From the IMG/VR virus record IMGVR_UViG_3300050120_000109, positions 1 through 43,141 of that record: a stretch of 43,141 nt of DNA. The stretch is one strand, 5' to 3'. Below, piece by piece: positions 813-34,575 of the stretch. Both the position numbers and the translations under genes were made by a program. Within the stretch, counting starts at the first letter, position 1; every line of letters starts with the position of its first letter. The stretch comes from a virus. The notes below the pieces were generated by a model. The model had not been told where the DNA came from. It saw nothing but the letters and a program-made list of their open reading frames with translations, and made no database searches.

Positions 813-1183
813 CGGTGCGTTGCTCTCGATCTGCCGGTGCGGTATCGCTCTCGGTCCAGTAGTTGTCTCACGTCTAGCGGGCCGGTTCAAGATAAAACGT
901 CTCTAGTAACGGGCCTTTCTTTCCGACGTTCGCATGCAATCGGCCTAACGGCGCTGGCGGCGTTGGGTGACCTATACGCGCATGGGTGACGCGTCGCCGC
1001 GCCACGCGCGAATGTTGCATTTAGGTTATGACCGTAACACGGCTTGCCTTACTTACTTATGTCACTCGAATGTATGTATATATTGGGCTGACGGGCGGCG
1101 GTTACGGTGGGATTACGCACAACGTCTTGGCGTAATCTGCGGCCGGTCGGGTTCGGTGTTGAATTACGCTTGCGTTTGCCGCC
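813..1183. promoter_or_regulatory. Divergent intergenic control region between the minus-strand early operon and the plus-strand terS operon
   Basis: There is no credible ORF. It contains motif copy CTCTAGTAACGG (901..912), an AT-rich patch (about 1009..1087), the inverted repeat GATTACGC-N11-GCGTAATC (1111..1137) and AATTACGC (1162..1169). Confidence 0.6.
901..912 (-). repeat. Copy 1 of the conserved CCGTTACTAGAG motif (minus orientation)
   Basis: Exact 10-mer GTTACTAGAG on the minus strand. It is intergenic, about 88 nt upstream of the minus-strand ATG at 812. Confidence 0.9.
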
Positions 1184-1876
1184 ATGTTCCGGGCGATGGG
1201 TGCTGAGCAAACTTCGATGGAGTTCCGGACGCTGGTGGATATCGATGATATCCGGGCAGCGGTCGAACGCGACGTGTTGGCGCGGGCTGGCGCTGCGCTG
1301 CCTGAACTGACGCATCAGCAACAGTTGTTCGTCGCTGAATACATGATCGATCTGAACGCGACGAAGGCGGCGGTTCGGGCTGGTTACTCGGCGCGCACGG
1401 CGGCGCAAATCGGCTCGCGCCTGTTGAGTAATGTTGAGGTTTCCAGGCAAATCAACGCCTTGCTGACGCGTCGGCTCCGTGCGGCACAGTTGACGGGTGA
1501 CGCGGTGTTGCAGGAGCTACGAAAGATTGCCTTCTCGGACGTGCGCGCGCTCTATGCTGCCGATGGTGAGTTGCTGCCGGTCGGGAAGTTGCCCGATGAG
1601 ATTGCGGCGTGCATCTCGTCTATTGAGGTCGATGAACTGACGCTCGGGGCTGGCGATAAAAAGCGGGTCATTGGCTCGTCCAAGAAAGTCCGGCTGCACC
1701 CTAAACTTGAGGCGCTCAAGATGCTGGCTCAACACTTCAAACTGTTGGGCGAGACTCGGCCGCACGGGGCGGAAATCGAAGGGGAGGTCGTGCCGATGGA
1801 TGAAGGGATGTCGCCGGAAGAAATGCGGGCGGCGGTCGTGAAGCTGATGCAAGCCGGTCTGGGGCGCATCGGATGA
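1184..1876 (+). CDS. terS: Terminase small subunit (Terminase_2-type)
   Basis: 'LTHQQQLFVAEYMIDLNATKAAVRAGYSARTAAQIGSRLLSNVEVSRQI' matches the classic small-terminase HTH signature. The gene is first in the late operon. The start could instead be 1196 or 1217. Confidence 0.9.
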   Translation: MFRAMGAEQTSMEFRTLVDIDDIRAAVERDVLARAGAALPELTHQQQLFVAEYMIDLNATKAAVRAGYSARTAAQIGSRLLSNVEVSRQINALLTRRLRAAQLTGDAVLQELRKIAFSDVRALYAADGELLPVGKLPDEIAACISSIEVDELTLGAGDKKRVIGSSKKVRLHPKLEALKMLAQHFKLLGETRPHGAEIEGEVVPMDEGMSPEEMRAAVVKLMQAGLGRIG

Positions 1877-2172
1877 AGAACCGGGTTCTAACGGCGTTGG
1901 AATTGCGCGCGCTGGCTGCGGCGGAAGATCACGGCGCGATCGTGCTGATGGGTGACGCGGCGCCTCGGACCTTGAAGGCGGGCGGCTGTAACCTGTGCGT
2001 TCCCATGTCGGTGTTGCTGTCGCTGATTGGTGACCATCTGCTGACGTTCGGGACGCGGCGGCGGCTGGTGCCGACTGACGAAGGGCGGGCCGCGCGCCGG
2101 GCTGGGTCGTGTGACGCCTTCGCTCAGTGGGCGGTTGCCGATCGGGTGGCGGAGGTCCTCCATGGCACATGA
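1873..2172 (+). CDS. Hypothetical protein (99 aa)
   Basis: The start overlaps the terS stop (ATGA). It is on the same strand within a tightly packed operon. Confidence 0.5.
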   Translation: MKNRVLTALELRALAAAEDHGAIVLMGDAAPRTLKAGGCNLCVPMSVLLSLIGDHLLTFGTRRRLVPTDEGRAARRAGSCDAFAQWAVADRVAEVLHGT

Positions 2173-2650
2173 CGCGGAAGGGCCTCGCGGCTGCATCCTC
2201 CCCGACGCTGGGGCGCCGGGCGATGTCGTGCGGCTGGTCGGCGTGCTGGGCGTGTCCATCGGGGCGCTGACGCGGCAAGTCGAGTTGTGTGAGCGGGCGG
2301 CGGCGCAAGGGGCTGCCATTAGTCCACACGCGCTGCTGACCAGTGCGGGGCTGTTGGAAGTCTGCGCGGCTCGGTTGCGGGCTGCGGCGCCGGCTGGTCC
2401 AGCGGCGCCGGTCGATCCGACGCAAAGGATTGCCGCCGCGTTCGACACGCTGGAATGGATGCTGACGATCGCACGCGACCGGGACGGGGTTATCGTGCCG
2501 ATGACGCCAAAGCAGGCGAAGGTGACGGCGGACCTGCTGGGTAAGACGGCGGACGCTCTTGCCGAGTTGTCGCGTGGCTACTCCGTCGCCGCTGGGGAGT
2601 TCTATGCCGTCGCGGCGCTCGGGGGCGGCGATGGACCTGCTATCGGCTGA
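2162..2650 (+). CDS. Hypothetical protein (162 aa)
   Basis: An internal ATG at 2162 within ORF 2111..2650 overlaps the end of the previous ORF. The amino-acid composition looks plausible. Confidence 0.5.
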   Translation: MAHDAEGPRGCILPDAGAPGDVVRLVGVLGVSIGALTRQVELCERAAAQGAAISPHALLTSAGLLEVCAARLRAAAPAGPAAPVDPTQRIAAAFDTLEWMLTIARDRDGVIVPMTPKQAKVTADLLGKTADALAELSRGYSVAAGEFYAVAALGGGDGPAIG

Positions 2651-3449: not shown

Positions 3450-4325
3450 ATGACCGAGGAAACAAAACCCGCCGGCGGATCTGCAGGACAGGAAGATTGT
3501 CACATCGCCGGCGAACTGCCTGCGGGGTCCAAGCCGCTCTGCGAGGGTGGCTGTGACTACTCGTTGCCGGGCGCCGCGCCGCGCGATGGGATCGGGCTCG
3601 GGCCGGTGCTGGCCTTCTGCCGGCGTTGCGATGGCCTCAACCCGCTGCTGAGTAACTCGGGTGACCATGCTGTGGTCGCGCTGTCCGAGACTATCCGGGC
3701 CTTCATGTTGCAACCCCTGCCGCCTGCTGCGACCGTCTACGGCGGCTTGACGAGTGAACCGGTGCCGGTGCTGCGCCATCCCGAAGTCGTAGACGCGGAG
3801 ACGCGGGCTAAGCTGCGGCTGTCGGTAGCGGCCTCGGACGGCGGTGCGGCGCTGCTGGACGACTCGGCTGTCGATCGCTTCGCGGCGGTGATGAAGGCTA
3901 AACTGACGGAAAAGCGGGCGGAGGGAAAAGGCGGCTGGTGGACGGCGGATAGACATGCCCTGTGGGCGGCGCTGGAAGCGCACGTCCACATGGAACGCCC
4001 GGTCGATGTCGCAAACTATGCGATGATGGTTTACCTCACGGACACGCAAAGCCCGTCGCGCCGGGTGGTGATGACACGCTACCGTAGGCATCGCGGCGGT
4101 TTGGGGGAGTCCATGGACACGGTCATCCTCGTGGGTGACCACGCGGACCTGTGCCGCGTGATCGCGGACGACTTCGCGTGGTCGGGTGAGAAGATGGGCC
4201 GGGTGACGGTCGAGCGATACGGCTTCGACGCCCGGATCGGCTGGGACACGCACCTCGTCTGCGTCGATGGGGCGGCGGTCGGCTACACGGACGGGCCGCT
4301 CGCGCCGGCCGAGGGGGCGAAGTGA
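3450..4325 (+). CDS. Hypothetical protein with a central MazG-like (all-alpha NTP pyrophosphohydrolase-like) segment, located inside the terL insertion
   Basis: RBS GAGGGAAAG lies upstream. 'FAAVMKAKLTEKRAEGKGGWW...LWAALEAHVHMERPVDVANYAMMVY' resembles the MazG/dNTP-PPase helix pair. The N-terminus is Cys-rich. Confidence 0.6.
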   Translation: MTEETKPAGGSAGQEDCHIAGELPAGSKPLCEGGCDYSLPGAAPRDGIGLGPVLAFCRRCDGLNPLLSNSGDHAVVALSETIRAFMLQPLPPAATVYGGLTSEPVPVLRHPEVVDAETRAKLRLSVAASDGGAALLDDSAVDRFAAVMKAKLTEKRAEGKGGWWTADRHALWAALEAHVHMERPVDVANYAMMVYLTDTQSPSRRVVMTRYRRHRGGLGESMDTVILVGDHADLCRVIADDFAWSGEKMGRVTVERYGFDARIGWDTHLVCVDGAAVGYTDGPLAPAEGAK

Positions 4326-4651
4326 CCGCGCGCTGTGCCGGTGGCTGCCTCTATGCCCGGCCGGTCGGCACGTCGCGTGACCGCTGCTGCGTCAAGTGTG
4401 AAAACCCGGAACCCGGCCTAGACGATGTCTCGATGTTGGACCGCATAAGCTGGGCCATCTGCGCGTGTGACCGGCAATGCCGGCCGGTCTGTCCTGCCAC
4501 GCGGCTGCGCGCGCGTTCGATCTTGGCGCTGTTGGCGTGCCCGACGCGACCGATGGTCATCGCTGGCGGAAACATGGCGGGCGGCAGTGACCCGGTCACG
4601 ATCTGGCGGGCGATGTGCCTCGAAGCCGCGAAGGATGTTCCCTACGCATAA
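4322..4651 (+). CDS. Cys-rich hypothetical protein (109 aa)
   Basis: A GTG start overlaps the upstream stop (GTGA). The gene is inside the terL insertion. Confidence 0.5.
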   Translation: MTARCAGGCLYARPVGTSRDRCCVKCENPEPGLDDVSMLDRISWAICACDRQCRPVCPATRLRARSILALLACPTRPMVIAGGNMAGGSDPVTIWRAMCLEAAKDVPYA

Positions 4652-4670
4652 AGCGTGGGGCTGTGGGGGT

Positions 4671-4680
4671 GTTACTAGAG
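4671..4680 (+). repeat. Copy 2 of the GTTACTAGAG motif (plus orientation)
   Basis: Exact 10-mer that directly abuts the ATG at 4681. Confidence 0.9.
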
Positions 4681-5103
4681 ATGATGAACGACAGGCCAAT
4701 CGACAACCCGACACTGCAAAAGGCGCTGGACGAGGTTAAGCAAACCATGCGGCGCTACGGGTTCGCCGGGTGCGTCATGCTCGTGTCGCCAACCGAAGCG
4801 GCATACGGCTACAGCATGCACGCGCCATGGTCGGCCATTCGTTACGACGGGACAACGCCGCTCGGTTTCCGGTTCCGGGCACAGTCGCAAGTCGATGGCG
4901 AGGAAGTGGCGCACCGTCGCATCGAAGGCGCGATGCACACGATCTGCCAGCTATCCGACTTCGGCGAACAGACAACGATGTGGATGGAAGACCTAAAGCT
5001 GATGCTGCGTCGCGCCGGCATCGAGTTCGATCACACGCCGTTCGGCGGCAGGGTGCTGGAACACCTGGTGCTGGGTGAACCGCCGCCGCCTACCGATGGG
5101 TGA
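4681..5103 (+). CDS. Hypothetical protein (140 aa)
   Basis: Internal ATG at 4681 (MMNDRPIDNPTLQKALDEVKQTMRRYGF...). The composition is globular-looking. Confidence 0.6.
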   Translation: MMNDRPIDNPTLQKALDEVKQTMRRYGFAGCVMLVSPTEAAYGYSMHAPWSAIRYDGTTPLGFRFRAQSQVDGEEVAHRRIEGAMHTICQLSDFGEQTTMWMEDLKLMLRRAGIEFDHTPFGGRVLEHLVLGEPPPPTDG

Positions 5104-5317
5104 CACCGTCTCGGCGTCGGACTGGGGCGACTTCGCAGCGGCGCCAAGGGACGGGACATACATCGACGCGTGGGCGGGCGGTTGCCGGCTGTGCGATGTC
5201 TACTGGTGCGATGAGGGGGACGGGTGGGCCAAGGATGGCAGCCTGATCCTGTTCCCGCACAGGCTAACCCATTGGCGACTGGCGCCGGGGCCTCCGAACG
5301 GTCACGGCCATAGGTAA
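5096..5317 (+). CDS. DUF551-like small phage protein (73 aa)
   Basis: ATG at 5096 overlaps the upstream stop. 'W...PRDGTYIDAW...WCDEGDGW...LTHWRLAPGPP' resembles the DUF551 pattern, whose C-terminus is typically thW.plP.pP. Confidence 0.55.
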   Translation: MGDTVSASDWGDFAAAPRDGTYIDAWAGGCRLCDVYWCDEGDGWAKDGSLILFPHRLTHWRLAPGPPNGHGHR

Positions 5318-8418: not shown

Positions 8419-8430
8419 CTCTAGTAACGG
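8419..8430 (-). repeat. Copy 3 of CCGTTACTAGAG (minus orientation)
   Basis: Exact copy in the 22-nt spacer between the portal stop and the ATG at 8440. Confidence 0.9.
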
Positions 8431-11522: not shown

Positions 11523-12005
11523 ATGCACATGATGATCGATGGGCTTCTCATCTTCGATCCCGCCGCAACGCTGCTGACTGTCACGGCTCCGTCCACGAAC
11601 GTTCTTGACTTGGGGGTGGGCCGTGATCTCGGGCCGGGTGGTCCGGTGCTGGATGTGTTCGGCATGGTTCAAACGACCATGACGGCGGCGGGTGCCGCGA
11701 CGCTGCAAGCCTCCATTCAGGGGGCGCCGGACAATGGCGGCGTGCCCGGAACGTGGGTCGATCTGATGATGACCGGGCTGCTGCCGGTCGCAAATCTGGT
11801 TGCCGGCGTCGAGTTCCTGCGCACGCCCCTGCCGTATCTCAACCCGGCGATGGCGGGCAACTCCAAGCCCATGCGGTTCCTGCGGCTCAATTACAACGTC
11901 GCAACGGGGCCGTTCACGGCGGGTGCTGTCTACACGGCGTTGATCCCGCACGGCGGGCGCCAGAACAACATCCCGTATGGCTCGGGGTTCAATCCCTTCA
12001 ACTGA
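11523..12005 (+). CDS. Capsid decoration/cement-like protein (Bbp16-like by recollection, 160 aa)
   Basis: It lies directly after the capsid gene. 'LLIFDPAATLLTVTAPSTNVLDLGVGRDLG...' is typical of that family's N-terminus. Confidence 0.55.
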   Translation: MHMMIDGLLIFDPAATLLTVTAPSTNVLDLGVGRDLGPGGPVLDVFGMVQTTMTAAGAATLQASIQGAPDNGGVPGTWVDLMMTGLLPVANLVAGVEFLRTPLPYLNPAMAGNSKPMRFLRLNYNVATGPFTAGAVYTALIPHGGRQNNIPYGSGFNPFN

Positions 12006-12029: not shown

Positions 12030-12041
12030 CCGTTACTAGAG
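12030..12041 (+). repeat. Copy 4 of CCGTTACTAGAG (plus orientation)
   Basis: Exact and intergenic, 35 nt upstream of the ATG at 12076. Confidence 0.9.
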
Positions 12042-12075: not shown

Positions 12076-12639
12076 ATGGCTCGTTGGCGTATTCATCAAC
12101 TGTCCTTCATCGACACGGGAAACAACGGCGGCGGCGCGCTGTTCGATGCGGGTTCGGAAATCAACGTCGGGCCGCTGCGCGCGGCGGTGGGCAGTCCGGG
12201 TGATGCCGGTTACCGGCCGGCCGTCGTGCATCGGCCGGGGCCGCACTGGGAGCCTTTGGACGATGAGGCAAAGGCAATCTCTGCGGACACGAAAACCACC
12301 TTTACCGGCGAAGTGCCGGACGTGGTCAACGCGCTGGCCGATGAGTTGGAAGCCTCGAAGGCCACGATGGACGCGGCCAACCGGGCAACCGTGGTCACGC
12401 CGGAAATAATCGCCCAAATCGTCGCGGCGGCTCTCGCCGCGCACAAACCGGCGGAACAGGTGCCCGCTCCTGCGGCTCCGGTTCCGGCGCCACTGACGGC
12501 CGGCGAAATCGCGGCAATCGTCGCGCAAGCTGTTCATCACACGATGGACACTCGCGCTGGCGCCGATGCGATGAAGGCGGCGGAAGCCGCTGCGCTGGCC
12601 GACGAGACCACCTCGGATACGAAGTCCAAGGGGAAGTGA
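12076..12639 (+). CDS. Hypothetical virion-module protein (187 aa)
   Basis: RBS TAGGAGG lies upstream. Confidence 0.6.
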   Translation: MARWRIHQLSFIDTGNNGGGALFDAGSEINVGPLRAAVGSPGDAGYRPAVVHRPGPHWEPLDDEAKAISADTKTTFTGEVPDVVNALADELEASKATMDAANRATVVTPEIIAQIVAAALAAHKPAEQVPAPAAPVPAPLTAGEIAAIVAQAVHHTMDTRAGADAMKAAEAAALADETTSDTKSKGK

Positions 12640-12644: not shown

Positions 12645-12684
12645 GGCCGGCCCGGCGTGCTGCCTGTCGGGCTGGCCTCTTTTT
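12645..12684 (+). terminator. Rho-independent terminator candidate
   Basis: GC stem GGCCGGCCCG / CGGGCTGGCC (one mismatch), a loop of about 12 nt, then TCTTTTT. Confidence 0.65.
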
Positions 12685-14355: not shown

Positions 14356-16769
14356 TGGCGCAACTCGCCTCGATAATGCAGCCGTCCTTTTCGGCCGGCG
14401 AAGTCTCGGCGCAACTGTGGTCGCGCGTCGATCTGGCGAAGTATCGGGCTGGTCTCAAGCTCGCCCGTAACTTCTTCATCCTGCCCTATGGCGGGGCTGC
14501 GACGCGGCCGGGGACGGCGTTCGTGATGCAGACCCTCGGGCAAGCCGCACCCGTGCGGATGATCGATTTCGTGTTCTCGACGCTGCAAGCCTACAGCCTG
14601 GAATTCGGCGGCGGATACATGCGCGTCGTGATGGATGGCGGCATGGTGCTGGAACCGGGCTTCGCGGTCTCGGCCGTGCCTGTGTCCTCGGTCGTCAATG
14701 CGACCGTGCCCGGGCACGACTACGCCGTGGGCGATTGGGTCTCGATCTCGGGCGAAGCGTCGATGGTCCAGGTCAACGACGTGTTTATCGTCGCCGCGAT
14801 CGCCGGCCAGGTGCTCACTCTGACGGACCTTGACGGGCTGCCGCCGCTGGGCGCGGCCGGCTGGGCGGCGTATGGCGGCGGCGGCACGATCGGCCGGATT
14901 TACACCATGGCGACGCCTTACGCGGCGGCGGACCTGGCGCTTCTCAAGTACACCCAAACCGCTGACACGCTGACGCTGACGCACCCGAACTACGCGAGCA
15001 ACGATATCACACGCACGCAGCATTGGGCGTGGACTCTCAACCCGATCACCTTTCAGGCGGCGGTGCAAACCCCGGCGAGCCTGAACGTGACGGCTCTGAA
15101 CGACCCGCTAACTGATGCCGACACGGCCGGCGGTGCGGCGCAAACCGTCGCCAATTTCCCCCGGCTGACGTTCTACTATTGCGTGACGGCCTTGACCGAT
15201 ACGCCTTCGGAAGAGGGTAACCCCACGGGTGTCGTTACGTGCGTCAATGCCGCGCTTAACCAAACCTCGGGCATCGTCAATCAAATCGCATGGACCGGGC
15301 CGGTCTCGGGGCCGGTGCCGTCGCGCTTCAACGTCTATGGGTCCGTGCCGCAGCCGGTGAACGCTGATCCGCCCACCATCTTCGGCTATATCGGCCAGTC
15401 CACGGGCCTGTCGTTTACCGATGTCAACATCAAGCCGGACTACACGCAAACCCCTCCGACGCACACAAACCCCTTTGCCAACAATAACAATCCGGGGGCG
15501 GTAAACTACTTTCAGGGGCGGCGCATCTTTGCCGGCTCCGGGCCGCAACCGCAAGCCGTGTGGATGACGCAAGCCGGCAATTACACGAACATGGACGTGT
15601 CGTTTCCGTCGCGGGACTCCGACGCGATCACGGTCTCGCTGCTGTCGAAGCAGGTGAACGCAATCAAGCATCTGGTCTCGATGAACGCTTTGCTTGCCCT
15701 GACAAGCAACGGCGCGTGGATGATCTCGGCCGGCGCGCAAGGTAGCTTCCTGTCGCCTTCGACCGTCGTTGCGTCGCCGCAAAGCTATAATGGCTGCTCC
15801 GACGTTACCCCGATCGCGATCAACTATGACATCCTGTATGTCCAGGCGCGCGGGTCCAAGGTGCGTGATCTGGCTTACAACTTCTACGTCCAGTTGTTCA
15901 CGGGCGCCGATATGTCGGTGCTGTCGTCGCATATGTTCTACGGCTTCAAAATCCTCGAATGGGCCTATGCGGAAGAACCGTATTACCTCGTCTGGGCGGT
16001 GCGCAACGATGGGGTCTTGCTGTCGTTTACTTACATGAAAGAGCAAGATGTCTATGCCTGGGCGCGGCATGACACGGGAAACGGCAATGGCGACGGCTTC
16101 ATGTCGGTCTGTTCAATACCGGAAGGCCAGGAAAATGCCCTTTATTTCGTCACGTCTCGAACGATATCCGGCCGCAACTTTGGGCGGCCGGTTCAATACA
16201 TCGAGCGTATGGCTTCTCGGAATTTCTATCAGTCCGGGGTGCCAAACGTCGCGCTGGCATGGTGCGTCGATTCGGGGCGCCAGTATCAAGGGCCTCCGGT
16301 CTCGCGCGTATATGGGCTGCGCCATCTCGAAGGGCGCACCGTGGCAATCCTCGCCGATGGCAATGTGCAGCCGCAACAGGTCGTTGTCGGCGGATCGGTC
16401 GCGGTGCAGGCGCCGGCCTCGGTCATCACTGTGGGCTTGCCGTTTCAAGCACAACTGCAAACCCTCGCCCTCGATGTCGGTGAGCCATCGATCCAAGGCA
16501 AGCGGAAGAAAATTGCCCGCACGTCGCTGATCGTGATGGACACGCGCGGCCTCAAGCTGGGGCCGGACGCGGCGCACCTGGCTGAGTTCAAGGATCGCAC
16601 GAATGAGAACTGGAACGCGGCGGTGCCTCTAGTAACGGGGCTGACAACCACGCTCCTGCCGCCAGTGTGGCAGGTCGATGGGTCGGTGTTCATTCAACAG
16701 GACCAGCCGTTGCCGGCAACCATCCTCGGCATCATCCCGCAAGTGGTCATCGGCGATGATCCGGGTTGA
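14352..16769 (+). CDS. Tail tubular protein B / nozzle (T7 gp12-like, 805 aa)
   Basis: Size and synteny after the gp11-like gene fit. The N-terminus is 'QPSFSAGEVSAQLWSRVDLAKYRAGLKLARNFFILPYGGAATRPG'. Confidence 0.75.
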   Translation: MMAQLASIMQPSFSAGEVSAQLWSRVDLAKYRAGLKLARNFFILPYGGAATRPGTAFVMQTLGQAAPVRMIDFVFSTLQAYSLEFGGGYMRVVMDGGMVLEPGFAVSAVPVSSVVNATVPGHDYAVGDWVSISGEASMVQVNDVFIVAAIAGQVLTLTDLDGLPPLGAAGWAAYGGGGTIGRIYTMATPYAAADLALLKYTQTADTLTLTHPNYASNDITRTQHWAWTLNPITFQAAVQTPASLNVTALNDPLTDADTAGGAAQTVANFPRLTFYYCVTALTDTPSEEGNPTGVVTCVNAALNQTSGIVNQIAWTGPVSGPVPSRFNVYGSVPQPVNADPPTIFGYIGQSTGLSFTDVNIKPDYTQTPPTHTNPFANNNNPGAVNYFQGRRIFAGSGPQPQAVWMTQAGNYTNMDVSFPSRDSDAITVSLLSKQVNAIKHLVSMNALLALTSNGAWMISAGAQGSFLSPSTVVASPQSYNGCSDVTPIAINYDILYVQARGSKVRDLAYNFYVQLFTGADMSVLSSHMFYGFKILEWAYAEEPYYLVWAVRNDGVLLSFTYMKEQDVYAWARHDTGNGNGDGFMSVCSIPEGQENALYFVTSRTISGRNFGRPVQYIERMASRNFYQSGVPNVALAWCVDSGRQYQGPPVSRVYGLRHLEGRTVAILADGNVQPQQVVVGGSVAVQAPASVITVGLPFQAQLQTLALDVGEPSIQGKRKKIARTSLIVMDTRGLKLGPDAAHLAEFKDRTNENWNAAVPLVTGLTTTLLPPVWQVDGSVFIQQDQPLPATILGIIPQVVIGDDPG
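16627..16638 (-). repeat. Copy 5 of CCGTTACTAGAG (minus orientation), inside the nozzle gene
   Basis: Exact copy. In frame it reads as A-V-P-L-V-T-G. Confidence 0.9.
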
Positions 16770-20508: not shown

Positions 20509-23500
20509 TTTCGCGTCGTTCGTAACCTCGACGCTGGGCGGGCCTGTCGCGCCGGCCGCTGGGGCTGCGCCTGGTGCTGTCGGCGGGCTGCCGTCGCCGG
20601 CCAACGATATCGGCGGCGGGTTCCCGGCGTTCATGAAGTCGATGCACCTGGCTACGGCGCAAGCCGCCAAGGGGGCGGTTGGCGCGGCGGCTGATGTCAA
20701 CCCCGACGAAGCGGGCAAGGCGGTGCAGCTCGCCCCGCAACTGGGGCTGCCGGCGTCGGTCGTGGAAACCGACGTTCCCGGCTTCACGCAACAGGCGGCG
20801 GCGGCAAAGAGCAACGCGCTGATCGATGGCAATCCGGTGCTGGCCTCGTGGCTGGCGGCAAACCCGGACGCTGCCCGCATCGCGAAGGACGACTTCGACA
20901 AGCTGGACGTGGTGACGAAGGCGGCAACCGCGCTCAAGTCGGGATGGACGGGCGCCTTTGCCGGTGATCAACGCGGCCGGCTGGGTATGCAAACCATGCT
21001 GGGCGACAACTCGCCGGCAACCGCCGCGTCGATCGCCGGCTTCGACAAGCAGCTTGCCGCCAGTCCGCAACTGTCCGGGGTCTATGGCGCGCTGCAAAAG
21101 GTGACCGGGTTCGCGGGCGGGCTGCTGGATAACTTCCTGCACTCGGCGCCGGAAGCCTATGTAGGGGCCGCTGTGGGCGGCGCTGGCGGGCTGGCGGGCG
21201 GCGGGCCTGCCGCACCTGTCACGGGCGCTGTGGGCGCCATAGGCGGCGCTGCCGTGGGCCTCGGCGTGGGGTTCAAGTGGGATATGTCGCAAATCGCGGC
21301 CGGTAACACTTACCTCGATCTCGGGAACGTCAAAGGGGCGGGTGGGGAGTCGATCGGCGAAAGCGCCAAGCAGGCGGCGGCGGTGCTGGTCGGGATCGGG
21401 ACGTATGCGCTCGCCGGCCTCGGCGGCAAGGCGTCGGGTGTGCCGCAAGCGGCCTCCGGGCTGCTGTCGGACGCGATCAAGGAATCCGTCGTGCAACCGA
21501 CCGTCGCCCGCGCGCTGGGGCAGTTCGCCGGCAAGCTGGCGGCGGGTGGTGCCGAGTTCGCCGCGATCAACGCCGGCATGGAAGGGACGAGCATCTTCGG
21601 GACTGAGTTGGCGAAGCAACTCTCGGCCGGGGATTTCGATACCGTGTTCAACGACCCGGTCACACGGCAACAGGTCATCGACAACCTGATGAGTGCCGCG
21701 CTGGATGGCGCGATGCTGGGGCCGCTGGTGCGGGTGCCCGGCGCTGCCATGGGGTTTGCCGAGTCCTCGATCCGGGCGCGGCAGGCGGCGTCTGATGTCG
21801 AAGCCTTCCATGCGCTGGAAACCGGCACGGCCGATAGCCGGATGCGGGGCCGGTCGCTGGATGCCTTCCACGCCTTCCTTGCCCGGCAGACTGACGGCGC
21901 GCCTACCGAAAACCTGTTCCTGCCGGCTGATCGGGTGCGGGAGTTGTATCAGTCGGCCGGCATCGAACCGGGCGCCGATGATGGCCTGCTGGGCAAGGTG
22001 GCGCCGGATATCGCGGAGCAGCTTGACCAGGCGCAACACACGGGCGGCGATGTCGTCCTCCCCACGGCCGCGTATGTCACGCATCTGGCCGGCACGCCGC
22101 TATCGGACCATCTCCGCCCGGATATCCGGGTCCGGCCGGATGCCATGTCGGCGCGGGAGGCGATGGATTTTCAAAGCAAGCGGGCGGAGTGGCTCGCCGA
22201 TCAGGTCGCCAGCACACACGCCGAAATGGAGCATGAACAGGCGGCGGCCGGGCCTGAGCGGGATGTGTTCGACGACGTGTTCTCGCAACTGCGCGGGGCC
22301 GGTCATACCGTCGATGCGGCGCGGCAATACGCCGCTGTCGTGGCGGCGCGCTACGGTGCCCGTGCGGCGCGTCTGGGGCCTGATGCCGGCTCCGCGCTCG
22401 ATCTCTACCATCAAGCCGGGCTGACGGTGCAGCGGGCGGTGCCGGACGATCTGGCGGCGCTGCCGGTGACCGATACCGACATGGTCCTCAACGCGCTGCG
22501 GCAGGGTGGCAAGCGGCTGCCGTCCACGCGCGACCTGATGGGGCCGAACCTGACGGAGTTCGTCAAGGATCGCGGCGGCGTCTACGACGACACGGGCGAC
22601 TTGCGGGCGATGGACCTGCAACGCGAACGCGGGCTGATCCGCATTCAGAAAAAAACCGGCCTGCAATGGGAAAGCAAAGCCGGCCGCACGATCAACGATC
22701 ATCACGTCGCGGCCTGGGAGCAAGGCTATTTCCCGGAACACGGCAACGATCCAACGTTCGATGACCACGACTTTGTCAACGCTCTGGCGGCGGAGTCGAG
22801 GGGTGACCGGCGGTATGCGCTGGGCAACGTCGATGAACGGCGCAAGGGGTTCTCCGATGCCGCCGCGTCGATGGACCGCTGGTTGGACGACAACAATATC
22901 GATCTCGATCACGTCACGAATGACGATGTAAAGCGGATGCTGGCGCAACATGCCGGCGACGCGGCCGATGCCTATGACCAGTCGGCCTATCACGGCTCGC
23001 CGCATGTCTTCGATAAGTTCGATAGTGCGAAGATTGGCACCGGTGAAGGCGCGCAAGTCTTTGGGCACGGCCTCTACTTCGCCGGCAACAAGGGGATTGC
23101 CCGGTATTACCGCGACGCGCTGAGCAAGGGCAAAACGGTTGGCGGTGTGCCGTCCACGGAATTGAGCAAGGGCGCGCAAACCGCGTTGCGGATGGCGCGC
23201 GATATGGGCGGCGTGGCGCGGGGTCTGCGGGAATATGAGACGCTGATCGCGGCGGAAAAGCGAGCGGTCGAAGAACACGAAAGGATTGTTGCCGACCTGA
23301 AGGCGCACCCGGAAAAACAAGACCGGGACGCGGAAGGCTGGGGCGACCTCGGTGGGCATCTGTCCGGCGTCGAAGCTGATCTCGCCTATCGCAAGGAACG
23401 GCTGGCGCATTACGAAGAAACCCTCGCCGGCTTTAAGGAGTTGGAAGGCAAGGAAATCAAGGGCGACGGCCGGCTGTTCCATGTCGATCTGCCGGAAGAT

Positions 23501-26500
23501 CACGAATACTTGGATTGGGACAAGCCGCTAAAGGATCAACCGGCGCATGTGCGGGCGGCGCTGCATGCGCTGGGGGTATCGGGTGATTTCCAGTGGTCGG
23601 ATAAGCAGCCGATCGGCGGGGGTGACCATGCCTGGATGATGACCGACACGGGCGGCGGGCCGTGGGCAACGCAACGCGCGATCATCCGCACCTTTGGTGA
23701 CAAGTTCGAAGTCGAGTTAATGCACGAGGTGCGGCCGGATGATAACGAATCGCGGGGCCGCACGTTCGATTCGCTTGACGAAGCCAAAGCCTACACCGAA
23801 ACGGCGGTCGATAAGGCCGGCTGGGGGTCGCGCGGTTCGGACGCCTACCACGACCTTGCGCGCAAGCTGGTGGCGCCGGTTGACCCGGAAGCGCGGAACG
23901 AAGGCAACCCTCCGGGCTGGGGTCATGTGGAACCTGAGCATAGGGAAGATCCTGCCGCCGCCAGCAGGGCGTTACTAGAGCATGGGGTCGTGGGCGTGCG
24001 TTACCTCGATGCGGGCAGTCGCGGCAGTGAAGGCGGCACCCACAACTATGTCGTGTTCGATGATAAGCGGGTGACGGTCAAATCTTTCGAGCAACGCAAG
24101 GGCGATGAGCCACGCGGCAAGATCACGCTGGAAGACGGCCGCGCGATCATTACGCTGTTCGCGAAAGCGGACCTGTCCACCTTCCTGCATGAAACTGGGC
24201 ATCTCTGGCTTGATGAAATGGTCCAGGACGCCGCAAGGCCGGACGCACCGCAAGGCATCCGTGATGACATGGCTGCAATCCTCAAGTGGATGAAGATCGA
24301 AAGCCCGGACCAGATTGACACCGAACAGCATGAACTGTTCGCGCGCGGCTTCGAAGCCTACCTGATGACCGGCAAGGCGCCATCGGCCGCACTGGTCGGG
24401 GCGTTCCGCAAGTTCAAGGCGTGGATGGTCTCGATCTATCAAAACGCGCTGGGCCTGCGCGCGCCGATCAACGACCAAATGCGCGCGGTAATGGATCGTA
24501 TGCTCGCAACCGACAACGAGATTGACGCGGCGCGGGCCTCTGAGCGGCACGGGGCGCTGTTCCGCGACGCGGCCTCGGCCGGCATGACCAATGCCGAATT
24601 TGCCGCCTACACCGGGGCGGTGTCGGCCGCGCGCGATCAGGCATCCGACCGGCTGTTGCGGCGGGCGATGGAAGCGATCAGGGCGCAACGGACGAAAAGC
24701 TACCGGGAGGAACGCGCCGGCATCCGCGACGATGTCGAGCGACAAATGCGCACGCAACAGGATCAGCGGGCGCAATACTGGCTCCGCACGGGCCGGATGC
24801 TGGATGACCCGGAAGCCGAATCGGGGGTGCCGCATCAACGGCTCTCGGGGCATGCGATCAAAGGCATGTATGACAACGATGGGGTCTTCGACCTGCTGCC
24901 AAAGGGCACCTATTCGATGGTGCATGCCGGCATCCAACCGGCTGACGTGGCGGAAATGTTCGGCTACCGCGACGGGCAAGGGCTGGTCTCGGCGCTGATG
25001 AACCTTGAAGCGCGGCGCAAAAAAGCCGTCGCGGACACCGGCAAGCCGCTGGATGGCATGGGGTTCCTCGCGCACCAGGTCGACCAGGAAACCGATCGGC
25101 GGATGATGGAGCGGCGCGGCGATGCGCTCGCCGATGGGTCGATCGAGGAAGAGGCGCTCGCGGCCGTCCACAACGCCGCGCAAGCTGATGTCATGGCAAC
25201 CGAGTTGCGGGCGCTCGCGCGCAAGGCCGGGGAAAACCCGCCGTTTTCCATGGCCTCGTTGAAGCAGTGGGCCGCGTCCACCATCGCGGACCTGCCGGTT
25301 GACCGCGGCGCATACCCCGGCACGTATCGCCGCTCGGAAGCGCGCGCCGGCCGGGAGGCGGAGCGGGCGTTGCTGAAAGGTGACCTGCCCGCCGCGTGGC
25401 AGGCGAAGCAGCGGCAATTGGTCAACCATCTGCTGGCGACGGAAGCCGATCTCGCGAAGGATGATTACGACGCTGGTAAAAAACTGTTTCAGCGGTTCGC
25501 CGGCCGGGGCGCGTTCGCCGGCATCGATCAAGCTTATACTGACCGTATCCACGAACTGTTGAAACGGTTCGGCTTTCAAACGTCGCGCTCTGATGATGAG
25601 TTGGGCAGGGGCCTGGGCGCGCAAACCCTCGAAGGCTTCGTGCAAACAAAGTCGGCCGATGGCTACGAAATTACCATCGATCCGGCGTTCTTCGATCCGC
25701 GTCTCGCGAAGCCGTTGGACGATCTGACCACGGAAGAATTCCGCGCGCTCAAGGATGCCGTCACGTCGCTGGCGCATGTCGGCCGGATGGAAAAGTCCGT
25801 GGTGGTCGAAGGGCAAAAGCTGGAATTGTCCGAACTGGTGGCGGAGGGTGTTGACCAGTTGAAGGACTGGAAACGGTCGGACGTGCCGGCCGAGATCAAC
25901 GCCGGTACCGCGACGGGATTCCGGGGCCTGCTGGAAAAGGTCTCGTCGCTGATGCGCACGGCCGATGCCGGCATGCTGAAGCAAGAGCAGGTCTTCGATT
26001 GGCTGGACAACCGCAAGGCTGACGGCGTGTTCAACCGGGTGGTGTTCGAACCGCTCAAGGCGGCGCAGCACCGCGAAAACGACCTTATGGTGATGCTGAC
26101 GGGCCGGCTCAAGGCGCTGCATGAAACCATGCCGGACGGCTGGGAAAAGGGCCTCGGCGTCTCCAAGGTGATGCCGGAATTGATCGATGAGCGGACGGGC
26201 AAGCCGTTCAAGTTCCGCCATCAAGATATCCTCGCGTTGGCTTTGAACACGGGCAACGCGGTGAACGCGGACAAGCTGGCGCGTGGCTACGGCTGGGACC
26301 GGGGCGATATCAAAACCGTCCTCGATCGCGAAATGACGGAACACGACTGGAATTTCGTGCAAGGCATCTGGGACACCTTTGAAACGTTGTGGCCGGATAT
26401 CGAAAGCCTCACGCGGCGGATGACCGGGCTGGGGCCGGAAAAGGTCGAAGCGGTGCCGGTGCAAACCCCGCACGGTGAGTTCCGGGGCGGGTATTATCCT

Positions 26501-27961
26501 CTCGTCTACGATCCGGTTAAAAGCTGGGACGCGGAATTGCGCCGGCAAAAGGCGGCGGGCGGGCTGTTCGAAAATAGCTATTTCAAGGCGTCAACGCCAA
26601 AGGGACACACGCTAAAGCGTATCGACAATTATTACGCACCCATCCGCCTGAGCCTCGATGCGATGCCGTGGAAGCTGGGCCAGGCGGTCCATGACCTGGC
26701 GTTCCGCGAAGCCATCATGGCGGCGGATAAATTCCTCGGGGACAAGCGGTTGCGCGGTGTCGTTTCGTCGGCGCTCGGGCGTGAGTATGTCGGGCAATTC
26801 CGGCCGTGGCTGCAATCCATCGCCAACGATCGCAACGTCGATGACAAGGGCTTGACCGGGCTGGACTGGCTGGCGCGGCAGGCGCGCATCAACACAACCA
26901 TGGTGGGGGTTGGGTTCCGGGTCACCACCATGCTCAAGCATGGCACAACGGCGTTGTTCAATTCGTTTGGTGAGTTGGGCGCGACGTGGATGCTGCGGGG
27001 CACGCGGGAGGTCTACGGCTCGCCGGAACGCTTCATGGCCGCGCATGATTTCATCCTGTCGCAATCTGGGGAAATGCGGCATCGGATCAACTCGATCGAT
27101 CGTGACGTGCGGGAGGGCCTGCGCACCATTCAGGGCGAAAGCGGCCTCCGCGCGACGGCGGAGCGGTTCGGTCACTACGGCGTGGCAATCCTCGATATGG
27201 GGTCGGCGCTGCCGACGTGGATGGGCGCCTACCGCAAGGCGCTGGCGGAGGGGGTCGCGCCTGATGCGGCGGTCCTCGCGGCCGATAAGTCGGTGCGCAA
27301 TGCGCACGGCGCGCAAGGTATTACCGACGTGGCGGCGGTGCAGCGTGGCGGCGATGTCGCAAAGATGTTCACGATGTTCTATGGCTTTTTCAATCATATC
27401 TATAACAGGCAGAGGGATACTCTTCGCACCGCTGGTCAAGCGATAGATCAGGCCAAGCAAGGTGAGTTCGCCGGCGCGCGCCGGGACTTCGGCATCGTCT
27501 TGGCGCGGACCTTCTACTACTTGATTGTGCCGGCGCTGGTCGAAGCGATGGTGTCGGAAGGCGGGCCGGACAAGGACAAGGATGAAAGCTGGCTGGGCTG
27601 GGCGGCGAAGGCGGTTGCCGGGGAAATCCCGGCCGGTATTCCGCTGCTCCGCGATGCCGCGAAAGCCGCGATCTCCGGGCGGACCTATGAAATGTCGCCG
27701 ATTGCAAAGGCGGTCGAGACGGCCATCCTCGCCGGCCGGGATATCGGGTCTGCGATCGGGCTGCGCGATCACGAGGCGTCGCCGCGCTGGGTGCGGCACG
27801 CGATCGAAACGCCTGGCTACGTGTTCGGCCTTCCCACGGGGCAGGCGGCGGGGACCGCGCAATACCTGTGGGACATCTGGCACGGGGACGAAGAACCGGA
27901 CGGCGCGGCGGATTTCATGCGGGGCCTGATGTATGGGCCGAAACCCAAGGGCGCCAGCTAA
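20498..27961 (+). CDS. Giant polyvalent virion/ejection protein (2487 aa) with a PARP-like ADP-ribosyltransferase module and an HExxH zincin motif
   Basis: It is a single uninterrupted ORF in the T7 gp16 position. Residues about 829-1195 (nt about 22982..24082) read 'YHGSPHVFDKF...GEGAQVFGHGLYFAGNKGIARYY' ... 'GTHNYVVFDDKRV'. 'FLHETGHLWLDEM...EQHELFARGFEAYL' lies at residues 1229-1290 (HETGH at nt 24188..24202). There is a Gly/Ala-rich hydrophobic stretch at residues about 220-320. Confidence 0.9.
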   Translation: MPDDFASFVTSTLGGPVAPAAGAAPGAVGGLPSPANDIGGGFPAFMKSMHLATAQAAKGAVGAAADVNPDEAGKAVQLAPQLGLPASVVETDVPGFTQQAAAAKSNALIDGNPVLASWLAANPDAARIAKDDFDKLDVVTKAATALKSGWTGAFAGDQRGRLGMQTMLGDNSPATAASIAGFDKQLAASPQLSGVYGALQKVTGFAGGLLDNFLHSAPEAYVGAAVGGAGGLAGGGPAAPVTGAVGAIGGAAVGLGVGFKWDMSQIAAGNTYLDLGNVKGAGGESIGESAKQAAAVLVGIGTYALAGLGGKASGVPQAASGLLSDAIKESVVQPTVARALGQFAGKLAAGGAEFAAINAGMEGTSIFGTELAKQLSAGDFDTVFNDPVTRQQVIDNLMSAALDGAMLGPLVRVPGAAMGFAESSIRARQAASDVEAFHALETGTADSRMRGRSLDAFHAFLARQTDGAPTENLFLPADRVRELYQSAGIEPGADDGLLGKVAPDIAEQLDQAQHTGGDVVLPTAAYVTHLAGTPLSDHLRPDIRVRPDAMSAREAMDFQSKRAEWLADQVASTHAEMEHEQAAAGPERDVFDDVFSQLRGAGHTVDAARQYAAVVAARYGARAARLGPDAGSALDLYHQAGLTVQRAVPDDLAALPVTDTDMVLNALRQGGKRLPSTRDLMGPNLTEFVKDRGGVYDDTGDLRAMDLQRERGLIRIQKKTGLQWESKAGRTINDHHVAAWEQGYFPEHGNDPTFDDHDFVNALAAESRGDRRYALGNVDERRKGFSDAAASMDRWLDDNNIDLDHVTNDDVKRMLAQHAGDAADAYDQSAYHGSPHVFDKFDSAKIGTGEGAQVFGHGLYFAGNKGIARYYRDALSKGKTVGGVPSTELSKGAQTALRMARDMGGVARGLREYETLIAAEKRAVEEHERIVADLKAHPEKQDRDAEGWGDLGGHLSGVEADLAYRKERLAHYEETLAGFKELEGKEIKGDGRLFHVDLPEDHEYLDWDKPLKDQPAHVRAALHALGVSGDFQWSDKQPIGGGDHAWMMTDTGGGPWATQRAIIRTFGDKFEVELMHEVRPDDNESRGRTFDSLDEAKAYTETAVDKAGWGSRGSDAYHDLARKLVAPVDPEARNEGNPPGWGHVEPEHREDPAAASRALLEHGVVGVRYLDAGSRGSEGGTHNYVVFDDKRVTVKSFEQRKGDEPRGKITLEDGRAIITLFAKADLSTFLHETGHLWLDEMVQDAARPDAPQGIRDDMAAILKWMKIESPDQIDTEQHELFARGFEAYLMTGKAPSAALVGAFRKFKAWMVSIYQNALGLRAPINDQMRAVMDRMLATDNEIDAARASERHGALFRDAASAGMTNAEFAAYTGAVSAARDQASDRLLRRAMEAIRAQRTKSYREERAGIRDDVERQMRTQQDQRAQYWLRTGRMLDDPEAESGVPHQRLSGHAIKGMYDNDGVFDLLPKGTYSMVHAGIQPADVAEMFGYRDGQGLVSALMNLEARRKKAVADTGKPLDGMGFLAHQVDQETDRRMMERRGDALADGSIEEEALAAVHNAAQADVMATELRALARKAGENPPFSMASLKQWAASTIADLPVDRGAYPGTYRRSEARAGREAERALLKGDLPAAWQAKQRQLVNHLLATEADLAKDDYDAGKKLFQRFAGRGAFAGIDQAYTDRIHELLKRFGFQTSRSDDELGRGLGAQTLEGFVQTKSADGYEITIDPAFFDPRLAKPLDDLTTEEFRALKDAVTSLAHVGRMEKSVVVEGQKLELSELVAEGVDQLKDWKRSDVPAEINAGTATGFRGLLEKVSSLMRTADAGMLKQEQVFDWLDNRKADGVFNRVVFEPLKAAQHRENDLMVMLTGRLKALHETMPDGWEKGLGVSKVMPELIDERTGKPFKFRHQDILALALNTGNAVNADKLARGYGWDRGDIKTVLDREMTEHDWNFVQGIWDTFETLWPDIESLTRRMTGLGPEKVEAVPVQTPHGEFRGGYYPLVYDPVKSWDAELRRQKAAGGLFENSYFKASTPKGHTLKRIDNYYAPIRLSLDAMPWKLGQAVHDLAFREAIMAADKFLGDKRLRGVVSSALGREYVGQFRPWLQSIANDRNVDDKGLTGLDWLARQARINTTMVGVGFRVTTMLKHGTTALFNSFGELGATWMLRGTREVYGSPERFMAAHDFILSQSGEMRHRINSIDRDVREGLRTIQGESGLRATAERFGHYGVAILDMGSALPTWMGAYRKALAEGVAPDAAVLAADKSVRNAHGAQGITDVAAVQRGGDVAKMFTMFYGFFNHIYNRQRDTLRTAGQAIDQAKQGEFAGARRDFGIVLARTFYYLIVPALVEAMVSEGGPDKDKDESWLGWAAKAVAGEIPAGIPLLRDAAKAAISGRTYEMSPIAKAVETAILAGRDIGSAIGLRDHEASPRWVRHAIETPGYVFGLPTGQAAGTAQYLWDIWHGDEEPDGAADFMRGLMYGPKPKGAS
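23971..23980 (+). repeat. Copy 6 of GTTACTAGAG (plus orientation), inside the giant gene
   Basis: Exact 10-mer. In frame it reads as A-L-L-E-H. Confidence 0.9.
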
Positions 27962-32619: not shown

Positions 32620-32691
32620 GGGGCGTCCTCCTGCATGGTGGGGATGGTGCAAAGCGGGACCATCTCGCGCCAGTCTGGGCCGATGTGAAGA

Positions 32692-33018: not shown

Positions 33019-33146
33019 GTTATCCGGCCTCCTGTGCCGGTATTCGGGATTGTATTACGCATCTGGCACGATTAGAAAAGCGTAAGTTATATCACGCAAA
33101 AAGCTAACGGTGATTACGCTTGCATGTATCTCCCCTGTGACTAGCG
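33019..33146. promoter_or_regulatory. Divergent promoter region with ATTACGC motifs and a degenerate GTTACTAGAG-like box
   Basis: TATTACGC (33053..33060), GCGTAAG (33080..33086) and GATTACGC (33112..33119). GTGACTAGCG (33137..33146) abuts the helicase ATG. No SD is visible. Confidence 0.55.
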
Positions 33147-34556
33147 ATGCCTGAACTGCATCAATTCCAAGATGACCTGCTGCAGGCGGCTCGCGCCGAA
33201 ATGGAGCATGTCCGCTCGGTCGTCGTCCAGGCTGCCACGGGTGCGGGGAAAACCGTGATCGGGACTGAGGCGCTCAAGCGGGTTCGGGAGCGTGGCAAGT
33301 ACGGCCTCTTCATGGTCAACCGGGTCGAGCTGGTCGACCAGACCGCGCGCACGTTTGAGAAATGGGGCCTGCCACACGGTATTATCGCTAACGGTTACCG
33401 GCCTAACCCGTTCCCGTCGATCCAGATTGCCTCGATTGGCTCACTTGAAAACGCTCTAAAAAAGGGCTTGGTGCGTGATCCGGCGCTGTGCGTCTGGGAC
33501 GAAGCCCACCACATGGCGGCGCCTACGTGGGCGCGGGTGATGGCCTACTTTCGCCGGGCGCGGCATCTCGGCTTGACCGCGACGCCTGAGCGCCTCGATG
33601 GGCGCGGGCTGGATGCCTTCTTTGAGGCGATGGTGTGCGGGCCACAACCGGGCTGGCTCATCGATAACAACTATCTCGCACCTTACCGGGCGTTCGGTCC
33701 GAAGCGGCCGGACCTGCGCGGCGTCGGGGATCGGGGCGACGATTACCATCCCGGCCAACTGGCCGCGATCATGGACACGCCAACGCTGTATGGCGACATG
33801 GTCGAGAATTATCAGCGCCACGGGATGGGGCAGAAGTTCATCGCCTTTTCCGTCTCGCGGGATATGTCGCGCAAGACGGCCGAACGGTTCCGGCTGGCCG
33901 GCATCCCGGCCGTGCATGTCGATGGCGACACGCCGGCCGGTGAGCGGCGGGCGACGATTGAGGCTTTCCGCGCCGGCAAGCTGCGGGGCCTGTGCAATGT
34001 CGACCTGTTCGGTGAGGGCTTCGATGTGCCCGACGCGGTCGTTGCGATCCTCGGCCGGCCAACAAAGTCCTTCGCGGTCCACAAGCAACAGATGGGCCGG
34101 GTGATGCGGTACGAGTTTGGCAAGGTGTCAATCCTGCTGGACCATGCCGGCAACCTCAAGCCGGGCTGGCTGCCGGACGATGAAACCCATTGGACGCTCG
34201 CCGGCCGGATCAAGGGGGTTAAGAAAAAGCGCCAGGCTGAGGACGATATCGATCTCGGCCGGTGCGGCAATTGTGGCGGCTTCTGCCAGCCCGGCATGAT
34301 GCTCTGCATCGGCTGCGGCGGGGTGCGCATCGAAGCCGTGGGCAAGCAACTGGAAACCGTCGAGGGCGTGCTTGGGGAATACGATGTCAAGGCGATGCGG
34401 GCCGCGCGCAAGCGCGAACAGGCGGACGCGCAAACGCTGGATGAGTTGATTGAGTTGGGGCGTCGGCGGGGTTACCGGTCGCCGGAAGGATGGGCGCAAC
34501 ACTTCTTCTCCGCGCGTGCGGCGGCGCAAGGGGGCTTTGACCTTGACGGGCGGTAG
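33147..34556 (+). CDS. SF2 DEAD/DEAH-box DNA helicase with a C-terminal zinc ribbon (469 aa)
   Basis: Motif I 'QAATGAGKT', motif II 'VWDEAHH', motif III 'LGLTATP', motif VI 'QQMGRVMR' and 'CGNCGGFCQPGMMLCIGCG'. Confidence 0.9.
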   Translation: MPELHQFQDDLLQAARAEMEHVRSVVVQAATGAGKTVIGTEALKRVRERGKYGLFMVNRVELVDQTARTFEKWGLPHGIIANGYRPNPFPSIQIASIGSLENALKKGLVRDPALCVWDEAHHMAAPTWARVMAYFRRARHLGLTATPERLDGRGLDAFFEAMVCGPQPGWLIDNNYLAPYRAFGPKRPDLRGVGDRGDDYHPGQLAAIMDTPTLYGDMVENYQRHGMGQKFIAFSVSRDMSRKTAERFRLAGIPAVHVDGDTPAGERRATIEAFRAGKLRGLCNVDLFGEGFDVPDAVVAILGRPTKSFAVHKQQMGRVMRYEFGKVSILLDHAGNLKPGWLPDDETHWTLAGRIKGVKKKRQAEDDIDLGRCGNCGGFCQPGMMLCIGCGGVRIEAVGKQLETVEGVLGEYDVKAMRAARKREQADAQTLDELIELGRRRGYRSPEGWAQHFFSARAAAQGGFDLDGR

Positions 34557-34563
34557 GCCGGGG

Positions 34564-34575
34564 CCGTTACTAGAG
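34564..34575 (+). repeat. Copy 7 of CCGTTACTAGAG (plus orientation)
   Basis: Exact and intergenic, 13 nt upstream of the ATG at 34589. It is followed at once by an 8-codon mini-ORF (ATGGGGGTATTAGATGCAAAGCCATGA). Confidence 0.9.

Follow-up and report, generated by a model that had tools for sequence, protein, structure and literature searches.

The question raised by a 43,141-nt stretch of viral DNA (IMG/VR record IMGVR_UViG_3300050120_000109, positions 1 to 43,141, hereafter the window) is why one short word, GTTACTAGAG, recurs in it exactly, seven times and on both strands, and what reads it. The element is real, selected and lineage-specific. It is a variant of the known class of dispersed recognition words of phages, and its most likely, though tentative, role is as the site of a regulatory protein. 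A first-pass annotation had listed the seven copies, and its coordinates and strands proved to be right (901-, 4671+, 8419-, 12032+, 16627-, 23971+ and 34566+). No match to GTTACTAGAG was found in 100 dinucleotide-preserving shuffles and, besides low-complexity GC repeats, this word is the sole over-represented 10-12-mer in the genome. Taken at 12 bases, it reads CCGTTACTAGAG in five of the seven copies, GTGTTACTAGAG in copy 2 and GCGTTACTAGAG in copy 6. Copies 1, 3, 4 and 5 extend to CCCGTTACTAGAG, and the flanks further out share nothing. The 12-base copies, with neighbouring open reading frames (ORFs), are as follows.

Copy 1, 901..912, minus strand: CCGTTACTAGAG, in the divergent control region that separates terS (1184) from the leftward operon, into which it points.
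Copy 2, 4669..4680, plus strand: GTGTTACTAGAG, in the 29-nt spacer after ORF 4322-4651, abutting ATG 4681.
Copy 3, 8419..8430, minus strand: CCGTTACTAGAG, taking up most of the 22 nt that separate the portal stop (8417) from ATG 8440, antisense to both genes.
Copy 4, 12030..12041, plus strand: CCGTTACTAGAG, in the 70-nt spacer after ORF 11523-12005, 34 nt before ATG 12076.
Copy 5, 16627..16638, minus strand: CCGTTACTAGAG, within the nozzle/tail gene (14352-16769), on its antisense strand.
Copy 6, 23969..23980, plus strand: GCGTTACTAGAG, within the giant gene (2487 aa), on its sense strand.
Copy 7, 34564..34575, plus strand: CCGTTACTAGAG, starting 7 nt past the helicase stop (34556), directly before ATG 34576 (an 8-codon ORF).
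Doubtful eighth box, 33135..33146, plus strand: CTGTGACTAGCG (CCGTGACTAGCG in the close relative described below), abutting the helicase ATG 33147; a candidate only.

A count allowing one mismatch, which had been proposed earlier, yielded no such copy anywhere in the genome, and two-mismatch matches to the 10-mer were fewer than expected by chance (4 observed, 7.5 expected). The latter figure bears on the box GTGACTAGCG (33137-33146), which the first-pass annotation had put forward as a degenerate eighth member. This box directly precedes the helicase ATG, and the relative has it almost unchanged, but it is statistically indistinguishable from chance and its membership is unproven. The word is not palindromic and no consistent hairpin surrounds the copies, as had been claimed; moreover, no RNA structure was found at them. 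The tetranucleotide CTAG is depleted in the genome (21 seen, ~141 expected from composition); of these 21, seven are contributed by the copies and one more by the doubtful box.

Evidence for selection comes from the only close relative, IMGVR_UViG_3300043649_000005 (38,367 bp), which originates from an independently sampled JGI metagenome and whose sequence was rebuilt from four loci. It shares 89% nucleotide identity with the window across the 83% of the genome that aligns. The annotation had looked to related phages for conservation of the word and its positions, and in this relative all seven copies are syntenic and identical across 12 bases, including the site-specific GT and GC variants. 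With 89% overall identity, the probability that 84 of 84 bases remain unchanged is 0.89^84 = 6e-5. Copy 1 lies in an island of identity that runs from ~17 nt before to 19 nt after the word, amid diverged intergenic DNA, and copy 3 is identical although its 8440 side is strongly diverged. Copy 2 is kept beside a 407-bp deletion (window 4685-5091). Here the gene at 4681-5103 (140 aa) is missing from the relative, the motif being followed there by a remnant ORF of 6 codons that overlaps the GTG start of the next gene. The relative also has an extra insertion of ~355 nt in the giant gene, ~100 nt downstream of copy 6. A reading of the copies as boundaries of mosaicism or recombination was considered and rejected, with just copy 2 (and weakly copy 3) found at an identity break (overall p=0.13).

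The two copies within genes show what is being preserved. Copy 5 is read as P-L-V-T-G with the codons CTA-GTA-ACG, of which CTA and GTA are rare, and copy 6 is read as TTA-CTA-GAG (L-L-E), with TTA used just 4 times in 10,777 counted codons. Among 883 Leu codons TTA accounts for 4 and CTA for 28, and GTA accounts for 25 of 760 Val codons. The L-x-T-G of the nozzle copy is a tail-protein motif that is conserved in distant homologs; the protein is therefore ordinary, and the codon choice is the unusual feature. Since rare codons are found in both coding copies, it is the DNA word and not the protein that is preserved. The word is under strong purifying selection at the DNA level, and seven improbable exact copies, unchanged in the only known relative, amount to a real DNA recognition signal.

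Placement was taken from the gene map and family scans of this analysis. An exact 127-nt overlap (window 1-127 = 43015-43141) shows that the window is a circular assembly with a true length of 43,014 bp; its G+C content is 64%. The earlier placement of the copies holds, with five intergenic (901, 4671, 8419, 12032 and 34566) and two in genes (nozzle and giant). Intergenic DNA makes up 8.1% of the genome, and the probability of at least five of the seven copies being intergenic is 6e-5. Around the 43,014-bp circle the gaps are 3770, 3748, 3613, 4595, 7344, 10595 and 9349 bp. The copies are over-dispersed, the smallest gap (3613 bp) being larger than under random placement (P=0.005). The strand is minus for three copies and plus for four. 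The alternation of strands to which attention had been drawn is not significant, as 7 of the 35 circular arrangements of three minus and four plus sites alternate as fully. Relative to the gene map, orientation follows the local genes in 5/7 copies and is opposed in copies 3 and 5. It appears that the word is placed where it costs least, that is, in spacers, and within genes only where these are very long.

A closer look at the bases that follow the word suggests that the site may extend further at some copies. The base directly after it is a purine in six of seven copies. ATG follows copies 2 and 7, ATC follows copy 3, CATG follows copy 6, and 'GC' is found after the word in two copies. An 'AT' thus stands after the word in 3/7 copies (P ~1e-3, calculated from base composition), and because copy 3 is among these the ATG abutment may partly reflect an extended site, not start codons. 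In keeping with the first-pass annotation, copy 7 does stand directly before an ATG mini-ORF, but that ATG is probably not a working start. A distance of 13 nt separates the end of copy 7 from the start codon of the small paralog gene 34589-34807, and this gene has its own G-run six bases upstream of its ATG. Copy 7 also lies just upstream of a cluster of GGTCTGCC repeats. The gene that starts at ATG 12076, downstream of copy 4, has an AGGAGG ribosome site. Copy 2 is located inside a 1.9-kb insertion that splits the large terminase gene.

Beyond the one close relative the conservation breaks down. Loci of more distant relatives were fetched via portal, nozzle, capsid and primase searches, among them a Ralstonia condita prophage and dozens of contigs from soil metagenomes. 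In these relatives (63-75% major capsid protein identity) the word is absent, except for one isolated copy in locus L013: the 12-mer CCGTTACTAGAG is in no other fetched locus, the Ralstonia prophage locus included, and the 10-mer is found there once, in L013. Nor do they carry an equivalent repeated word, since a de novo search of them for over-represented 10-mers gave only chance triplets. The string GTTACTG, shared by loci L151, L114 and L171, was considered as an equivalent and rejected as a coding coincidence. A scan of 2.9 million viral contigs, prophages included, with CCGTTACTAGAGAT returned 68 single matches, and only the one relative had two. In a collection of 5.8 billion proteins neither the helicase nor ORF 3450 had an intermediate relative: the next helicase shares 48% identity, and ORF 3450 is an orphan. 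A full-text literature search for the word returned only unrelated primers. Taken together, the word is real, non-random, intergenic-biased, over-dispersed and lineage-specific, and the data point to an asymmetric DNA signal of ~12-13 bp that is read at high stringency and needed at intervals round the genome.

As to what reads this signal, our preferred but tentative answer is that the 12-13-bp word ([C/G]CCGTTACTAGAG) is recognised by a DNA-binding protein that is lineage-specific, is encoded by the phage and controls transcription. We infer that the reader is a protein, that the phage encodes it and that its effect is on transcription. Such a protein, bound as an asymmetric unit to sites round the genome, would influence transcription by the host polymerase. 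Copy 1, at the head of the leftward operon, would be an operator acting at initiation; copies 2, 3, 4 and 7 in short spacers, together with copies 5 and 6 in the two longest genes, would be local, possibly polar, blocks or control points. The absence of the word and of any equivalent from the 63-75% relatives fits a fast-evolving pair of protein and site. The early regions contain many small ORFs without assignment that are Cys-rich, helix-turn-helix-like or paralogous. The closest known analogue is the set of operators and stoperators in Cluster A mycobacteriophages, where the L5-type repressor is monomeric and binds a 13-mer whose sites lie in promoters and short intergenic spaces, their orientation tracking the direction of transcription closely (PMC9283540). 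The likeness extends to an asymmetric word of 12-13 bp, a genome-wide distribution over control region and short spacers, the lack of a hairpin and lineage specificity (PMC9283540). In contrast to the stoperators, the sites here show no variation, two run against transcription and two lie within genes. The phage that carries them is a proteobacterial-type BPP-1-like podovirus, not an actinobacterial siphovirus, and neither a gp71-like repressor nor a lysogeny module was recognised in it by family scans of 48 ORFs, no direct comparison with gp71 having been made.

These scans covered Pfam, PHROGs and NCBIfam and included every ORF of at least 290 aa judged coding, and several of their results weigh against a regulatory protein. 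A phage DNA-binding protein was one of three roles proposed at the outset and fits the data best of the three, but the scans identified no binder, giving neither a repressor-family match nor a homolog of known specificity; the sole repressor-like signal was a weak HTH_31/HigA-like match of the ORF at 42145-42822 (minus strand). They also gave no integrase and no clear lysogeny module. On the same side of the balance, the structure model of the small paralog is poor (predicted local distance difference test, pLDDT, 67). Operator-site families usually tolerate variation, whereas the copies here show none. With seven sites only, the number is well below the >20 of L5, and two of the seven oppose local transcription, whereas stoperator orientation follows it closely (PMC9283540). 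A separate palindromic repeat, found as GATTACGC pairs in control regions, could provide the classical operators. Lastly, the exactness, the even spacing and the indifference to gene context fit the site of a nuclease or nickase just as well.

One of the two main rivals, which we hold to be rather unlikely, is a phage-encoded nickase that would cut within the word (e.g. TACT/AGAG) in mature or replicating DNA, leaving breaks on both strands at least 3.6 kb apart. It would agree with exact copies that have no near-variants, with their over-dispersed spacing and with copies kept in long genes at a rare-codon cost, whatever the orientation of the gene; the number of copies, seven in 43 kb, also falls in the range known from tf (14 in 46 kb) and from phiKMV-like phages (PMC3517423). 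The statement in the first-pass annotation that the nick consensus of tf contains TACT was right (TACT/RTGMC, PMC3517423), and this tetramer is common to both words. As here, the known systems have a short near-invariant word in a handful of copies, with positions kept among relatives and a biological role that is unexplained. In the T5-like, phiKMV-like and tf/LUZ24-like phages, however, every nick site is on one strand (PMC3517423), as opposed to three minus and four plus sites here. This phage belongs to none of those groups, its word differs from their consensus sequences, and its nicks are hypothetical. Both the tf and the phiKMV consensus occur in the genome at chance level: a scan with TACTRTGMC gave one exact match and 18 with at most one mismatch against 10.8 expected, which was not counted as enriched, and the phiKMV pattern CGACxxxxxCCTA/CTCCGG has only 2-3-mismatch matches, at chance rate. 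The family scans revealed no nuclease (HNH, GIY-YIG or other) besides the terminase, and nicking offers no obvious reason for the intergenic bias except that spacers are the cheapest place for the word. We are similarly doubtful of the other main rival, a minimal promoter. In this reading an unrecognised phage factor would redirect the RNA polymerase of the host, which would begin transcription on the final base of the word or directly behind it and so produce leaderless or near-leaderless mRNAs. A promoter had been suggested earlier, and the five of seven copies that run along local genes lend it weak support, while the absence of any polymerase or sigma-factor match and the bad placement of copies 3, 5 and 6 do not. 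Copies 1, 2, 4 and 7 are just upstream of genes in sense orientation, copy 1 heading the leftward operon. The purine after the word in 6/7 copies, the immediate ATG in copies 2 and 7 and the CATG in copy 6 would suit a start of transcription there, and a consensus scan found no sigma-70 promoter within 1-13 kb or 30.2-37.2 kb. The initiation core of T7-type promoters is ACTATAG, one base off the ACTAGAG of the word, and in the late promoters of T4, where TATAAATA is an 8-bp element used with gp55, one short element can suffice. Both types resemble the present case in being exact short words repeated before genes. T7-type promoters, though, are gene-oriented and have a conserved block of 17-23 bp (-17 to +6), whereas here the word has 12-13 bp, copies 3 and 5 lie antisense and copy 6 is in the middle of a gene. 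From copies 3 and 5 antisense transcripts would enter the portal and nozzle genes. A promoter makes little sense at these three of the seven copies, yet all three are as well conserved as the others. Neither side of the word has a -35 or -10 partner at a fixed distance, and inspection of the copy flanks by eye found no sigma-70, -35/-10, extracytoplasmic function (ECF), sigma-54 or MotA-box-like partner at fixed distance. Downstream of copy 7 the gene has a G-run ribosome site of its own, so the abutting ATG need not be a start. The first-pass annotation had seen no single-subunit polymerase, and this was borne out: no family of RNA polymerase, sigma factor or sigma-like protein was matched in the 48 scanned ORFs, and all ORFs of at least 469 aa are otherwise assigned, as portal, nozzle, transglycosylase protein, giant polyvalent protein, fibre, helicase or primase-helicase. 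A polymerase concealed in the giant protein was considered and rejected, since Pfam matched it only to LPD22 and, weakly, to an ART domain, and the PDB gave no sequence match.

Three further explanations are far less probable than these. A host signal, either a DNA-uptake sequence or a genome-wide host word acquired by the phage through amelioration, would account for a word that is exact, non-palindromic, present in both orientations, more even than random and partly in genes. The DNA-uptake sequence (DUS) of Neisseria and the uptake signal sequence (USS) of Haemophilus are similar in that they are exact, non-palindromic, evenly spaced in both orientations and partly within genes. We hold this to be very improbable, because among the 2.9 million viral contigs only one relative had more than one copy of CCGTTACTAGAGAT, and the 12-mer is missing from all other fetched loci, with the 10-mer present once (L013). 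In addition, the strong avoidance of CTAG in the phage genome argues against a host rich in the word. There is as little to recommend a translation start-associated sequence (SAS) that acts in the mRNA and replaces or supplements the Shine-Dalgarno sequence. In its favour, an ATG stands directly after copies 2 and 7 and after the doubtful box, and no Shine-Dalgarno match precedes the helicase, though many genes of this phage lack a strong site. The word, however, has no complementarity to the anti-Shine-Dalgarno sequence, three of its seven copies are on the opposite strand and two are within genes, and since 'AT' also follows copy 3 (ATC) the ATG may just reflect the preference of an extended site. 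The SAS of Cluster K mycobacteriophages are likewise 13-bp asymmetric repeats, absent from other phages, beside start codons and of unexplained function, but they contain an AGGAG core, lie 3-7 bp before starts, nearly all in one orientation, and are confined to the non-structural half of the genome, none of which is true of the word (PMC3203893). That the word is no functional element at all, having arisen by chance, recent copying, an assembly artefact or a synthetic cloning scar, is to us almost inconceivable. The 8-mer TACTAGAG within it is identical to the standard BioBrick RFC10 assembly scar. We judge this match to be a coincidence because the sites are kept in a diverged environmental genome and one copy encodes a conserved tail motif. 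The same seven sites recur in the independently sampled, 11%-diverged JGI genome; Logan assembled the phage of the window independently (a 43,044-bp contig carrying its 291-aa ORF and motif copy 2); copy 5 encodes the L-x-T-G that is conserved in distant homologs; and none of the 100 shuffles matched. Two other candidates were tried and rejected: a boxA/nut-like reading of the reverse complement, for which the spacing does not fit and just two copies would be sense, and a Chi-, Ter- or KOPS-like polarity from the repeat cluster as origin, with which the orientations are inconsistent.

The analysis also allows for a more speculative view, which we consider improbable, of the word as genome punctuation of an undescribed kind. 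This would act by nicking of both strands at evenly spaced sites or by stoperator-like polar barriers and be read by an orphan protein of the lineage, with the spacing selected even within the nozzle and giant genes. Such a lineage-only reader might be encoded, for example, in the insertion that splits the terminase. To our knowledge nothing of the kind has been described in BPP-1/epsilon15-like podoviruses. Dispersed, exact and asymmetric words in phages have previously led to new biology, for example the stoperators and the L5 repressor, the nicks of T5, phiKMV and tf, and phage promoters. Here the evidence of selection at the DNA level is clean, comprising rare codons in two essential structural genes, islands of identity in spacers, over-dispersion and the lack of near-variants. 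Finding the reader would yield one of three things: a new protein that binds or nicks 12 bp of DNA with high specificity and could serve as a tool, the first two-strand nick system, or a new route by which a phage without its own polymerase organises transcription. Public read sets exist for both genomes (SRR35930614 and JGI 3300043649), and the nick hypothesis can therefore be addressed by computation alone.

The genome in which the word is set is that of a podovirus of BPP-1/epsilon15/AF-like type, judged by its structural genes. The portal, giant protein and tail genes are closest to those of BPP-1, AF, HU1 and epsilon15-type phages, and the structural set consists of portal, protease, capsid, tubular tail proteins, internal virion proteins, a transglycosylase protein, a Bbp10-like polyvalent protein and a fibre. 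The plus strand carries the genes from terS (1184) to ~37.1 kb. On the minus strand an operon extends from ~890 back over the origin of the map to 37.1 kb, with the primase-helicase and lysis genes within it; it also carries a Cys/His-rich ORF of 72 aa and a small paralog. Because a cell-wall hydrolase and membrane-looking ORFs are found in the primase-helicase operon, lysis and replication genes share one operon. No tRNAs and no Rfam family matches were found in the window. Further features of the map are listed below.

Cell-wall hydrolase, 38287-38892, minus strand: at the end of the minus-strand operon.
Two membrane-looking ORFs, 37835-38251 and 37111-37830, minus strand: at the end of the minus-strand operon.
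Giant internal-virion gene, 20498-27961, plus strand: 2487 aa; the C-terminal half is Bbp10/PHROG 9880-like, and the N-terminal half has LPD22 and a weak ART-PolyVal (ADP-ribosyltransferase) match, with no other assignment.
Terminator-like hairpin, 12645-12677: strong, with 13 pairs and then a T-run; located behind ORF 12076-12639, at the close of the capsid gene block.
Orphan ORFs of the terminase insertion, 3450-4325, 4322-4651, 4681-5103 and 5096-5317: together with motif copy 2.

The N-terminal half of the giant protein (1201 aa) had no sequence match among solved structures (PDB). The large terminase is encoded in two parts, an ATPase part (2559/2604-3437) and a nuclease part (5323/5341-6066), with ~1.9 kb between them. 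The same split is found in the relative, and the two parts are contiguous in the TerL of EBPR podovirus 1. No intron family was detected in the insertion.

Other repeats accompany the word in the control regions. GATTACGC has five occurrences against 1.2 expected: an inverted pair lies in the control region upstream of terS (1111-1137), and single copies lie upstream of the helicase (33112-33119) and the primase (42027-42034). A TTACGC dyad, AAGCGTAA...TTACGCTT, precedes the helicase. The GATTACGC and TTACGC dyads look like classical palindromic operators, distinct from the 12-mer. Downstream of copy 7, an iteron-like cluster (34809-35857) contains 8 of 10 GGTCTGCC copies on one strand within 1 kb, arranged in four 43-nt units, and a partial inverted copy of it lies near 42.9 kb (42931-42938, 42896-42943). 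The cluster may be a replication origin or a copy-control region. Lastly, the small paralogs at 370-594 (minus strand) and 34589-34807 (plus strand) are 60% identical, belong to PHROG 11804 and have a weak MazE-like match. Each is encoded shortly downstream of a motif copy (1 and 7, respectively), and the two genes form a 129-nt inverted repeat.

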